UHGV virus genome: UHGV-0101699
Direction: 5' to 3' (one strand)
DNA from: a virus
Length of the DNA: 64,000 nucleotides
Under the pieces are notes generated by a model. That model did not search any database, was not told the origin of the DNA, and saw nothing but the letters and a program-made list of their open reading frames with translations. This document shows, piece after piece, positions 51,672 through 59,931 of this stretch (position 1 is the stretch's first letter; each line of letters begins with the position of its first letter). The translations under genes and the position numbers were made by a program.

Positions 51672-53951
51672 TTACTCTAAAATGATACGAGATAACTCGC
51701 TGACAACTGACGTACCCAACTCTTCGACCTTATTCACTAGCGCATAGTTTTTGTAATACCGGCGCGGCGCGTCCGTAAGAATGCCAATGGCCAACAGGTT
51801 GATGTCACTTGTGTTTTCGATGTCATTCGTTACAGAGCGCAGATGGTTACTAAAGCCATCCCCCGCAGCGCATGGGGCGCCGTCGCTCTGCACAATCATG
51901 ATCTTCTTGTCTTCCATACGCCCTGCAAACAGAGAAGCCAGCTGTGCGATGCTCTCGCCATCCACGTTGTTTAGCAGGGGGAAAGTCTCCGCCACACAGC
52001 CCATACGAGCACGTATCTCTGGGGAGTTCGCTTTTTCATGCCAGTTTTTAATAATCGGCAGCATAAGCGCTTCAAAGCGGCTAAACCCACGTTTCGACAT
52101 AGTTGCTACATCCGGATTGCCATACGTAGTGAAGCCGGTAATGACGTTCGGAACGTGGATACGATCTAGGGCGTCAGCCAGTGTGTATGCGGATGCCAGC
52201 GCGAGCTCGATTTTTCGGCCGCCCATTGAACCTGACAAATCGATGACCTGTTGAACGCACGCGTTCACGGCCTTGTGGTCTTCTTTTCTCCGGAATACCC
52301 GATCGTCATTCATCGACAGTCGGTAAAGACTCGCCCCATGTACGCGTCCACGACGCTGGCCAGGGATGAACTGAACACGGTTACGACTGGCGATCGCGCG
52401 CTCCAGGTCTTTGGCCAAGGTAGATGACACCGAGGAAGACAGATGTCTCTCCACCTTCATCACAAACAGTTTTCTGCCCTCTGGAACAATGCGGTAGCGA
52501 TCTACGGGAGAATACATAGGGATTGCGCCAAAAGCTTTTCTGGCGCGCTTAATATGCTCTTCTGCCTCGTCAATTGGCCCCAGAAAGTCGTAGGAGCGAT
52601 TGTATGGCCGGTAATCAGATAGTGACGCGCTGGCCAGCTCCGACTTGATCGCCGACGCCAGCGCATCTTCGGTTGAAGAACCTATCTCTTCATCGACGTT
52701 TTCTAATGCCTTGAGAGCATCATCAAGAGACATATCGTCAGCGTGTGGGGCAAAGCCGGCATCGCTTTCATCCGAGGTGTCCCGACCCCCTTCATCCTTC
52801 TCCTTGCCACCGTCTTTATCTGCCTTGCCTTCACCGTCTTCGACAGCTTCGCTGTCATCAGAGGAGCTGCCATGCCTGTCCTCTGAGCCATCATCCGTGG
52901 ACGGACTGTAATCCCCTTCATCATCTACTTCTTCCCCTACATCCGAGCCCAGAGATGTAACAGGATCATCAGCTGTCGTTTCTTCGCTGTCAGGCAAGTC
53001 GTCAACATTTTCATGGCCTAAATCGCCATCTTCAGGTTTACTTTCTGTATCATTTATTACTTCATCACTGTTAGGTATGTGCTTACTTATCGATTTGTCT
53101 GATTTTTCATCATCTTCATCGTCAGAGCTAAACCCATCAGGAGTGCTTTCGAGCCCCTCTTCGTCACAAACCTCAGTATCGTCTCCAGCAGCCGGCTCAT
53201 CCGAACTGTCTTCTTCTGGTTCGGTCTTTTTGGTTACAGAGGATTCAAGCTCAGGTAACGGGCCTTCTGGCATCTCAGTCATTTCACGCAGGATCTTCGC
53301 CATTGCTGCAGCAACCTTGACGCAATCCTCAGTGCTATCCATACGACGAACAGCTTCATCGACGCCAAACTCTTTCAGTACGGCAATAGGTTTATCGATG
53401 AGGTGCCAGTGCTCCTCCATGAAATCAACAAAAGTTGGTTGGCCATCCCACGCCCGTAGAACCGGACAGAGGAAGAACTTTAGAAACAACTCGCGTTGAT
53501 CCCCGCGGCACATCGCTACCGCCTTTTTAATGTGGGGATTAAAATATTTATCAATCATTAGGTTACGTGTGGACAATAGGTTCCGCCGGCTGCCGGTGAA
53601 CACTTCACTCATGCGACGTTCGATGTAGACGTCTTCCAGGGCGTTCCAGAGTCCGAATGCCTTTGTGTTGCGCATTTTCTTGACGACTTTTTCGTCTGTG
53701 AAAAGGAGATGGCCAACCTCGTGATCAAGGAATCCACGTATGGCATTCATAAGCGCAGGGCTTGCGTCATCTGGTATGGATGGGATGTTAACCATGACTG
53801 GCTCACCCTTTTTATTGTAGCGAACGTATGCTGTGTCTCCGCATTCAGCTACAGGAATATTCTTGCCCGAAAGAAGACCAACGACGCGTTTTACGGAATC
53901 GCGGAAGTCCTGTACCTCTTTGAGTACAGTTTTGCTGGGTTTGGTTGCCAT
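51672..53951 (-). CDS. CobT-like protein with central acidic/Ser-rich low-complexity region and C-terminal von Willebrand A domain
   Basis: MIDAS-like DLSGSMGG ... vWA fold; start MATKPSKT with ACACATG context. Confidence 0.65.
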   Translation of the reverse strand: MATKPSKTVLKEVQDFRDSVKRVVGLLSGKNIPVAECGDTAYVRYNKKGEPVMVNIPSIPDDASPALMNAIRGFLDHEVGHLLFTDEKVVKKMRNTKAFGLWNALEDVYIERRMSEVFTGSRRNLLSTRNLMIDKYFNPHIKKAVAMCRGDQRELFLKFFLCPVLRAWDGQPTFVDFMEEHWHLIDKPIAVLKEFGVDEAVRRMDSTEDCVKVAAAMAKILREMTEMPEGPLPELESSVTKKTEPEEDSSDEPAAGDDTEVCDEEGLESTPDGFSSDDEDDEKSDKSISKHIPNSDEVINDTESKPEDGDLGHENVDDLPDSEETTADDPVTSLGSDVGEEVDDEGDYSPSTDDGSEDRHGSSSDDSEAVEDGEGKADKDGGKEKDEGGRDTSDESDAGFAPHADDMSLDDALKALENVDEEIGSSTEDALASAIKSELASASLSDYRPYNRSYDFLGPIDEAEEHIKRARKAFGAIPMYSPVDRYRIVPEGRKLFVMKVERHLSSSVSSTLAKDLERAIASRNRVQFIPGQRRGRVHGASLYRLSMNDDRVFRRKEDHKAVNACVQQVIDLSGSMGGRKIELALASAYTLADALDRIHVPNVITGFTTYGNPDVATMSKRGFSRFEALMLPIIKNWHEKANSPEIRARMGCVAETFPLLNNVDGESIAQLASLFAGRMEDKKIMIVQSDGAPCAAGDGFSNHLRSVTNDIENTSDINLLAIGILTDAPRRYYKNYALVNKVEELGTSVVSELSRIILE

Positions 53952-54068
53952 GTGTTTTTCCTTATCGAGTAAACAAATTGTTTTCAGATATAAGAAAATA
54001 ACACTGCGCGAACAGGGGAGGAAGCAATTCGCGCAGGGGATCAATGAGTTATAGGCGGGTTATAAATT

Positions 54069-56379: not shown

Positions 56380-56739
56380 ATGATGACCTTAAAATATTAT
56401 TTACGGCACTGCTTATGGGGATGGTGTGGTTATGGCTATCTGATCTATTTTATAGTGCGCGATATGAATGACGGACTAATTTTTCCTGCCTATGTTCCTT
56501 ATATGCCATTTGTGGTTACATATCTTGTTTTAAGCGCCGTCCTGTACCCATTCTCATATTATACTTCGGAGAAACTAGCCCTTAAGATAATGACCAAACC
56601 CTTTTGGGATCGTCACATTGGCGTGAATAGCGGTGTGTATGGCATGTTCATTATTTTGTGGTTATTTTGCCTGCCGCTTTCGGTACCGTTATTTCTCGTA
56701 TATTTATGCATACGCGCAAAGACTAGATTAAGTGCCTAA
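56380..56739 (+). CDS. integral membrane protein (3-4 TM) in AT-rich DNA
   Basis: 119-aa hydrophobic ORF, low GC. Confidence 0.5.
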   Translation: MMTLKYYLRHCLWGWCGYGYLIYFIVRDMNDGLIFPAYVPYMPFVVTYLVLSAVLYPFSYYTSEKLALKIMTKPFWDRHIGVNSGVYGMFIILWLFCLPLSVPLFLVYLCIRAKTRLSA

Positions 56740-56803: not shown

Positions 56804-57214
56804 CTACGGGTTTGTTAATTTCTGGAAGGCTGCCGCGTATTTGGCGATGTCGCTCATTTTGGCTGGATCACTGGCTGTTTTGTGTGCCTCTTTCGGGAAG
56901 ATGGCCAGCAGACTATACACGTCCTGAAACTTGGCGTGCTGGGTATAAACGAGGGCGCGGTCGCTTGTACAGTTGAACCTGTTTCGGTGACTATTTCGTT
57001 CTTGCTTGGTGAATAAGAGATGAACGTGGTAAACACGAGAGGAAACTACAGAACCAGGTTCGGTATAGGGGCCATCTTTGCCAAAAACGGCCGGATAAAA
57101 GCCGTTTTTAAAACTCACAAAGTCAGCAAGTAAGGAGGTCTTCAGATCAGGCATTACTCTGAAGACCGGCTCCAAAAATTGGGCGTAACTATCACTGTTC
57201 CATGTGACTTTCAT
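56804..57214 (-). CDS. YafO-like toxin (ribosome-dependent mRNA interferase family)
   Basis: FGKDGPY ... VYHVHLLF ... LVYTQHAKFQDVYSLLAIFPKEAH ... MSDIAKYAAAFQ collinear with E. coli YafO motifs (FGRD, AHIHL, LVYCQG, LLIAIL.PEPH, MAEAF). Confidence 0.6.
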   Translation of the reverse strand: MKVTWNSDSYAQFLEPVFRVMPDLKTSLLADFVSFKNGFYPAVFGKDGPYTEPGSVVSSRVYHVHLLFTKQERNSHRNRFNCTSDRALVYTQHAKFQDVYSLLAIFPKEAHKTASDPAKMSDIAKYAAAFQKLTNP

Positions 57215-57223
57215 CGATCAGCC

Positions 57224-57841
57224 TTAATGGAAGGAGAAGTTTGCGAAGACGTCCTCATCAATGAGACCTGTCTGCGATTCGATAACCTCAACTTCGTTAA
57301 AGCACTGATTTAAAATCATCAGGAGGTCAGAAACCGCCAGACGGTACTCAGTGATAGCATCACTCAAACGTTTCAGGTACGGATGTGGCAGTTCGGCGTC
57401 ACGGATGAACTTGTTAACGAAGCCTTCTAAACCGCGTATGGACAGGTCAACGTTCTTCAAGTCCTCGTAACGGCTTTCACCGAAAGTATCGCGGATCTGT
57501 TCCGCACTGTAACCTGAAATGTTATGGGTCAACTGGACGTGTTTCGCCGTCAGCTCTGCGAGCCTTTGTTCAATATCCGCAAGTTGAGCTGCGGTGTCAC
57601 TCTCAGCAACCGGAATACCTTCCGTTTGCGGCAGTCTGAACTCATGGGAATCTGCAAAACCGGGCCTCGTCGACCTTGTGATGCCGCCGAAACGAGGACG
57701 CATCTTAAATTTTGTGTGTACACGCTTCGGGAATGCTTTCGGAGTGCTATTTGCATTCGAAAAGCGTGAAGCGTTAGAAGTCACGGTAGCAAGAGCATTG
57801 CTAATGACATTCATATCTTCCAAGCAATTTTCTAAATGCAT
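57224..57841 (-). CDS. hypothetical protein, candidate cognate antitoxin/partner of the YafO-like gene
   Basis: 205-aa ORF 9 nt upstream, same strand; not YafN-like. Confidence 0.4.
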   Translation of the reverse strand: MHLENCLEDMNVISNALATVTSNASRFSNANSTPKAFPKRVHTKFKMRPRFGGITRSTRPGFADSHEFRLPQTEGIPVAESDTAAQLADIEQRLAELTAKHVQLTHNISGYSAEQIRDTFGESRYEDLKNVDLSIRGLEGFVNKFIRDAELPHPYLKRLSDAITEYRLAVSDLLMILNQCFNEVEVIESQTGLIDEDVFANFSFH

Positions 57842-59621: not shown

Positions 59622-59708
59622 TTGGCGGAGGATAATGGAATCGAACCATCATCGCTTTCGCAATGGGACGGTTTTCAAGACCGCTTGGGCGCCATGCCCT
59701 CTATCCTC
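59622..59708 (-). tRNA. tRNA-Ser (anticodon UGA), CCA encoded
   Basis: GGAGGAT acceptor, anticodon arm GCGGTCTTGAAAACCGT identical to E. coli tRNA-Ser(UGA), long variable arm, T-arm GGTTCGATTCC. Confidence 0.75.
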
Positions 59709-59856
59709 CGTTCGTTGTGACGCCAGATGCTTATCTTCTGGTTGCTTCAACGAGCTGCAATTCATCACAACGGTAAGGGCATTCAGGGAATCAGATCCGT
59801 CGCGAACAGCCAAAGAGCGCGCCTTCCTTGCTGTCGTCCAAATACCCTTACCGTTG

Positions 59857-59931
59857 TGGCGATGGTGGGTGGATTCGAACCACCGACCAGTTGATTAACA
59901 GTCAACCGCTCTACCACTGAGCTACACCATC
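59857..59931 (-). tRNA. tRNA-Asn (anticodon GUU), CCA encoded
   Basis: GATGGTGTAGCTCAGTGGTAGAGC D-arm, anticodon loop CTGTTAA, T-arm GGTGGTTCGAATCCACC, 7-bp acceptor. Confidence 0.85.

Follow-up and report, generated by a model that had tools for sequence, protein, structure and literature searches.

A YafO-family toxin gene and a helical partner gene of an undescribed family: a probable toxin-antitoxin module of SSU5-like phage-plasmids

Two adjacent genes, here called A and T, were analysed on the viral genome UHGV-0101699, in a stretch of 64,000 nucleotides (the window). Judged from sequence, they probably form a bicistronic module of type II toxin-antitoxin (TA) genes in which the antitoxin belongs to a new family. 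The 136-amino-acid (aa) protein T, of the YafO family, is a toxin of an already known kind, and its 205-aa partner A is a new, undescribed family of an unannotated type. Related pairs are frequent on plasmids of clinical enterobacteria. The TA reading was drawn from the YafO homology of T, the near one-to-one co-occurrence of the two genes, their mobility as a unit and the same purifying selection on both. It also draws on charge complementarity, A being acidic (tail isoelectric point (pI) 4.1) and T basic, on variants that lost the toxin and kept A, and on other YafO-clade toxins that are likewise preceded by unannotated helical proteins. The two genes are co-oriented, with A upstream of T. 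Coordinates and sizes of the open reading frames (ORFs), and the spacing between them, were exactly as first described in an earlier, sequence-only reading of the window:

57841-57224, minus strand: gene A, ATG start, 205 aa, candidate antitoxin
57223-57215, minus strand: A-T intergenic spacer, 9 nt
57214-56804, minus strand: gene T, ATG start, 136 aa, YafO-family toxin candidate

Type II TA systems are recognised as adjacent, co-oriented pairs with a short junction that are conserved across genomic contexts, and A and T were found to be such a pair.

T matched the Pfam family YafO_toxin (PF13957) with 78.7 bits (cut-off 25, E=3.8e-22) over profile positions 4-101 of 101. It was 36% identical to Escherichia coli K-12 YafO over 110 aa (E=1e-17). 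D31, F32, K36, G38, R60, H63, H65, T83, Y90, H111 and other residues were invariant across an alignment that included E. coli YafO, and the earlier motif-by-motif likening of T to YafO is borne out by these matches. Against the NCBIfam YafO equivalog NF007377, T scored 60.9 bits, under the cut-off of 153. This score and the 36% identity place T in a separate clade of the family and not as a YafO orthologue. RefSeq already lists T as a 'type II toxin-antitoxin system YafO family toxin', so the toxin half of the pair is not new. By homology, T would be a ribosome-dependent mRNA interferase. The protein is basic (pI 9.4). A sequence search of the PDB returned nothing for T or A, and no YafO structure was found there.

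A gave no significant match in Pfam, NCBIfam or PADLOC. The earlier statement that it does not resemble YafN or Phd antitoxins held, with no similarity to YafN by BLASTP (E=3) and no match to PF02604 (Phd/YefM). A belongs to PHROG 13546 (phrog_13546), which lists its function as unknown, and RefSeq labels it 'hypothetical protein'. The family is tiny, with 30 clusters in a collection of 5.8 billion proteins. A profile search of 1.84 billion representative proteins returned 11 matches. All were evident family members or fragments, and none linked A to a known family. All members with an organism name were from Enterobacterales. Intact homologues of A extended down to 39% identity, with insertions and deletions only in the linker described below.

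Structure prediction for A, which had been proposed earlier, was informative in part. The AlphaFold2 (AF2) model, made from 19 sequences, gave a helix, a linker and a confident three-helix bundle, with confidence expressed as the predicted local distance difference test (pLDDT):

residues 6-31: N-terminal helix (AF2)
residues ~31-78: disordered basic linker, pLDDT <50, pI 11.7, mean identity 0.37 (fast-evolving)
residues 78-181: three-helix bundle, pLDDT 85-95
residues 182-205: acidic C-terminal tail, pLDDT 52-58, pI 4.1

It gave no informative fold match, since Foldseek searches of the PDB and BFVD returned generic helical bundles only (E 0.03 or worse). The best-conserved part of A was formed by the C-terminal 50 residues, with a mean identity of 0.82. 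Invariant positions clustered at N130-E139, which holds an RGLEG motif, at E165-F181, and at D195 and F199. The whole protein is acidic (pI 5.5). An acidic protein with a long segment predicted to be disordered and a conserved C-terminal region would be typical of antitoxins. A signal peptide or secretion of A was considered and rejected, the N-terminal hydrophobicity being 1.0-1.6 (amphipathic only).

As a side observation, both YafN and A have an acidic end with an F-x-[ND]-F motif (YafN ...DMTDDDFNDFKE, A ...LIDEDVFANFSFH; window 57224-57300; L003:1506-1799). The two C-termini, DDDFNDFKE in YafN and DEDVFANFSFH in A, are short and of low complexity. They were not used as evidence, and are noted as a lead for a shared toxin-binding motif.

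The stop codon of A (TAA, 57226-57224), together with the following GG, forms the Shine-Dalgarno-like sequence TAAGG for T. This implies translational coupling from A to T. The T[AG]AGG motif with its 9-nt spacing was kept in all diverged copies, so that the stop lies within the Shine-Dalgarno-like sequence in chromosomal and contig copies as well. Gaps of 18 nt in the tblastn survey came from alignments that stopped short of the A stop; the gene calls gave 9 nt.

The phage-plasmid setting proposed in the sequence-only reading was confirmed. Over 3 kb, the region matched the 108-kb Klebsiella pneumoniae IncFIB plasmid pKPN20-2 with 100% identity. Three Klebsiella phage records of ~110-120 kb, among them vB_KpnS_p4727 and pJN2-26, matched it at 97.5-98.2%. 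On these grounds, the window is assigned to an SSU5-like Klebsiella phage-plasmid. Its gene order is phoH, a gp49-family gene, grxA, A, T, a convergent colicin-E1/microcin-immunity-like ORF and an integrase gene.

By tblastn, 317 plasmids had A and 314 had T, and the breakdown by genus was the same except for Klebsiella (273 and 270, respectively). In a spread sample of T matches on plasmids, 59 of 60 were full-length and in a single piece (~98% intact). When loci were fetched through A alone, both genes were intact with the 9-nt junction in 29 of the 31; the exceptions were one locus with A only (L029) and one with remnants of A and T (L011). The pair was also present in the chromosomes of Brenneria goodwinii and Erwinia sp. 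JUb26 and in a 108-kb contig of Samsonia erythrinae, again with the 9-nt junction. In Erwinia sp. JUb26 it lies between metabolic genes and an HNH gene. Ratios of nonsynonymous to synonymous substitution rates (dN/dS), measured against three to four diverged copies, were 0.09-0.16 for residues 79-205 of A and 0.08-0.15 for T. Both genes are under strong purifying selection. With dN/dS of ~0.1 and intact homologues at 40-99% identity, A and T are real genes and not chance ORFs. One pair was mosaic (L027), with 77% identity in A and 97% in T, and such combinations indicate recombination within the module.

Variants with a lost or damaged toxin gene were found. In L029, homology extends through A and the spacer into T, where it ends after two codons and a 1.36-kb insert takes the place of the remainder; A is intact. 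Frameshifted T alleles were P0059, P0060, P0064, P0067 and P0054. The P0060 allele occurred in 23 contigs, and A was intact in the P0060 contexts that were examined.

A plasmid search with E. coli YafO revealed several further YafO clades, at 30-35% identity. In each inspected clade with an intact locus, an unannotated helical protein of 174-182 aa was encoded directly before the toxin, its gene either overlapping the toxin gene by 10 nt or lying 8 nt apart from it. No Pfam domain was found in these partners, and all their toxins matched PF13957. Two groups of partners were distinguished:

178-aa partner: 43 Klebsiella plasmids of the pSW25HRG/pKpnU95 type, including CP033758
B family partner, 174-182 aa: 257 plasmids, gene overlaps the toxin gene by 10 nt

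CP033758 is the closest relative of pKpnU95 (PMC8151138). The toxins of the B-type and 178-aa pairs were ~30% identical to T. B-type pairs fill the same slot between grxA and the integrase gene in sister SSU5-like phage-plasmids of Klebsiella, Enterobacter and Citrobacter. B-type and 178-aa partners were not found in scans of viral contigs, and scanning metagenomes with E. coli YafO brought up E. coli-like copies only and no YafN diversity.

Profile comparison related A to the 178-aa protein (E=1.4e-4, 100 columns, colinear, RGLEG common to both) and B to the 178-aa protein (E=3.4e-5, 114 columns, colinear). The direct comparison of A with B was not significant (E=0.04, 39 columns); reversed-sequence controls gave E of about 0.1. 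In a merged alignment of the partner groups, Q179 and S189 were invariant. A common ancestry of the A, 178-aa and B partners is plausible, and suggestive only, given that the direct A-B match was not significant. The B family differs from A in its hydrophobic, signal-peptide-like N-terminus, which A does not have, and in the 10-nt overlap with the toxin gene, as opposed to the 9-nt gap. B-family N-termini (L041, L044, L045, L046, L047), for example MKESITKIAMVLALALSGITHESCA, reached a maximal 12-aa Kyte-Doolittle hydrophobicity of 2.1-2.6, compared with 1.0-1.6 in the A family. Such a signal-like N-terminus is odd for a cytosolic antitoxin. On plasmid pSB89A_IMI-2 (L042:1381-2360), the B-type partner was found fused to the N-terminus of an insertion sequence (IS)-family transposase (P0121, PF01527). 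The YafO-type gene there is N-terminally truncated to 119 aa, and the module has decayed by IS insertion.

A wider proposal is offered tentatively, and we hold it to be more doubtful than not. A, the 178-aa proteins and B might constitute one fast-evolving superfamily of helical antitoxins for YafO toxins, the usual partner on enterobacterial plasmids and phage-plasmids in place of Phd/YafN. The grxA-integrase slot might then be a site of allelic exchange at which diverged specificities are swapped, driven by competition between elements (addiction and anti-addiction) or by phage defence. B proteins would possibly be membrane-tethered.

The experimentally proven TA locus closest to this pair is yafNO of E. 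coli. Its toxin YafO cuts only mRNA that is being translated, and expression of YafO by itself is toxic (PMC2814082). yafNO lies in the SOS-regulated dinB operon, YafN is autoregulatory and Lon-dependent, and a RelE-like fold was proposed for YafO (PMC2814082). The A-T pair shares with yafN-yafO a homologous toxin (36% identity, PF13957, common Arg, His, Thr and Tyr residues), an upstream antitoxin position and a short junction, of 2 nt there and 9 nt here. It differs in the partner, YafN being a 97-aa Phd/YefM-type protein and A a 205-aa helical protein without detectable similarity to it. Unlike yafNO in the dinB operon, A-T is predicted to be its own terminator-bounded unit, on a phage-plasmid.

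In the survey by Leplae et al. (2011), YafO toxins paired with Phd antitoxins and with unclassified upstream guilt-by-association ('AG') sequences (PMC3141249). The AG partners were neither described nor validated; A is of the same general sort, likened to them by description only. The YafO super-family of that survey had 25 members, none on plasmids or phages (PMC3141249), whereas the A-T pair occurs on >300 plasmids and phage-plasmids. In a plasmid study, one YafO-like gene is given as a toxin predicted by computation that stands alone, with no complete TA system (PMC8151138). In its possible role, the pair can be likened by analogy to phd-doc of phage-plasmid P1, an addiction module (mentioned in PMC7969092). 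Both would be type II TA systems on a phage kept as a plasmid, and their proteins are unrelated. Our literature search found no paper on the A-type partner or on YafO in SSU5-like phage-plasmids.

From the gene pair, its family, co-occurrence, selection, charge and domain layout as observed, we infer toxicity of T, neutralisation by A, the part of A that binds and a biological role. T would be an endoribonuclease that cleaves mRNA only during translation, as its homology to YafO suggests. A would be made just before T through translational coupling, and would neutralise T by direct binding. Binding would most readily involve the most conserved part of A, the last helix of the bundle with the acidic tail (about residues 155-205), which could cover the basic RNA-binding face of T. 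The fast-evolving basic linker of A may confer lability or have another function. Carried on the phage-plasmid, the module would make loss of the element costly through post-segregational killing, compete with related elements and phages, or both.

Several observations weigh against this model. On E. coli plasmid CP059990 and in three further contigs, A is broken by two stops and T is intact by sequence. The CP059990 copy of A (L048:2001-2606) has a nonsense codon at Y125, and deletions of 2 nt and 1 nt, within ~50 nt; an assembly error is unlikely because the identical truncated protein occurs in four contigs. In a 35-member cluster (L050), the N-terminal 30 residues of A are lost by a frameshift, and T is intact. 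As far as sequence can tell, it is chiefly these A-defective lineages that speak against an absolutely essential antitoxin. Either T may be tolerated in the absence of a full-length A, or it may be poorly expressed after coupling is lost. The cases could reflect such lost translational coupling, residual C-terminal fragments of A, or low toxicity of T. The co-divergence analysis, in which every region of A correlated with T (r = 0.85-0.97), is confounded by phylogeny and singled out no T-binding part of A. The AF2 model of T, made with 18 close homologues, had a pLDDT of 46; it was unusable and gave no support for a RelE-like fold. The literature search found no experiment on the A-T pair or on any A-family member. 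Furthermore, Pfam, NCBIfam, the AF2 model and Foldseek revealed no helix-turn-helix, ribbon-helix-helix, Phd or AbrB domain in A. Classical autoregulation by A is unsupported, since A has no recognisable DNA-binding domain. Such domains are common in type II antitoxins, and not obligatory. The sequence-only reading had offered two alternatives for A, a new antitoxin type or a fused regulator-antitoxin. The former is favoured by the conserved, mobile and coupled pair; the latter has no evidence behind it, the searches having revealed neither a regulator nor a DNA-binding domain in A.

The role of the module could also lie in abortive infection or exclusion of phages and competitors. A would then hold T inactive, with its helical body acting as a sensor, and would release T upon entry of an invading phage or a rival phage-plasmid. 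Overall, we consider this role rather unlikely. It concerns biological function and is compatible with A-T being a TA module, so the likelihoods given to the two are not those of exclusive alternatives. The variability of the grxA-integrase slot in sister SSU5-like phage-plasmids, with diverged YafO pairs whose toxins are ~30% identical, fits such a role, as do the mosaic A/T combinations with recombination within the module (L027), and A is far larger than simple neutralisation would need. In relatives, genes for AbiH (L050:1-614) and a type I restriction R subunit (L046:1-718) lie just upstream of the grxA/partner/YafO block, which would make the phoH-integrase interval an accessory or defence hotspot in SSU5-like phage-plasmids. 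However, PADLOC-DB 2.0 gave no significant match for A or T (best for T, PDC-M55B, E=0.013, 13.4 bits), and the Erwinia chromosomal copies lie among metabolic genes and not in a defence island. The intactness of T in ~98% of the sampled plasmids fits either role.

The lineage with a disrupted A and an intact T also kept under consideration a reading in which A is not an antitoxin at all. T would be a phage-plasmid ribonuclease for host shut-off or mRNA turnover in lytic growth, tolerated alone, and A an adaptor, localisation factor or regulator. The missing antitoxin-type domain in A, the signal-peptide-like N-terminus of the possibly related B partners and the position of the module within a phage-type accessory block (phoH, gp49, grxA) agree with this, in addition to the two-stop lineage itself. 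We judge it improbable, however, given the near-perfect co-occurrence and the conserved coupling junction, the retention of A where T is deleted or frameshifted, and the occurrence of the module by itself, with no phage genes, in bacterial chromosomes. The acidic and basic character of the two proteins is complementary and fits a pair that binds, and E. coli YafO expressed alone is toxic (PMC2814082). A mis-called or chance 205-aa ORF beside an orphan toxin would agree with the listing of a lone YafO-like toxin in the plasmid study (PMC8151138) and with the 'hypothetical protein' label of A. Conservation refutes it, and we give it practically no weight: dN/dS of A is 0.09-0.16, intact homologues extend down to 39% identity with insertions and deletions confined to the linker, the helical domain has a pLDDT of 85-95, and a good Shine-Dalgarno sequence precedes the A start.

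If A-T is a TA module as preferred here, A would represent a new antitoxin fold or family in the combinatorial TA network, and the module would be a candidate for maintenance of, or competition between, SSU5-like phage-plasmids. These elements spread resistance genes. The exchange of antitoxins between type II TA systems is a well-established concept, and the finding therefore extends known biology and overturns none. YafO-like genes on clinical Klebsiella and Enterobacter plasmids are now annotated and discussed as orphan toxins (PMC8151138). TA pipelines built on models of known antitoxins will overlook such modules. Should the upstream helical proteins be cognate, the TA inventory would be completed for >600 plasmid records (~315 + 257 + 43).

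Upstream of A, the following elements were located; the scan for terminator and promoter consensus sequences covered the window:

57938-57936, minus strand: stop codon of grxA, upstream of A
57929-57910, minus strand: terminator-like hairpin with a T-run, directly after the grxA stop; consensus match, putative
57903-57875, minus strand: candidate own promoter read from the sequence, -35 TTGTCG (57903-57898), 17-nt spacer, -10 TACACT (57880-57875)
57882-57867, no strand assigned: imperfect palindrome CGTAC-ACTTAG-GTACG, overlapping the candidate -10
57851-57846, minus strand: Shine-Dalgarno sequence AAGAGG, 4 nt (57845-57842) before the A start; kept in phage-plasmid copies

The terminator-like hairpin parts the A-T module from the upstream phoH-gp49-grxA genes, and the aligned phage-plasmid copies also have the sequence that forms it, with small differences. 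It is followed by ~70 nt that hold TTGTCG-17 nt-TACACT and the imperfect palindrome. A sigma-70 scan upstream of A gave no promoter above threshold; the candidate scores 8/12 and is put forward on conservation only. In the chromosome of Erwinia sp. JUb26 (L007), the module likewise comes with TTGTCG-17-TA[CA]ACT (TAAACT there), which suggests that the promoter region is part of the mobile unit. The palindrome is conserved only in part (the other phage-plasmid clade has CGTACACTTAGTTACG), and its place at the candidate -10 makes it a possible operator on weak evidence. An Rfam scan in and around the module returned no RNA element except a tRNA. Base composition of the module region was unremarkable.

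Further observations were made on the neighbouring genes. The 119-aa membrane-like ORF that converges with T (56380-56739, plus strand) matched the Pfam colicin E1/microcin immunity family (E=4.3e-6, 26.9 bits, cut-off 25), and its counterpart in sister plasmids is called 'colicin E1 family microcin immunity protein' in RefSeq. In L029, the insert (L029:4606-5980, equivalent to 57209-56236 of the window) supplants T from its third codon together with the microcin-immunity-like gene. It codes for a 300-aa ORF with a weak PADLOC match to an oligonucleotide cyclase (E=5.5e-4). Downstream of phoH lie genes for tRNA-Asn(gtt) and tRNA-Ser(tga), at 59623-59709 and 59857-59931, respectively, both on the minus strand. 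The former was detected by ARAGORN and Rfam (77.5 bits), the latter by ARAGORN only, under the Rfam gathering score. Finally, a 790-aa ORF (51672-54044, minus strand) has a very long acidic region of low complexity in which D, E and S abound; in relatives it is annotated as 'porphyrin biosynthesis protein' (CobT-like).

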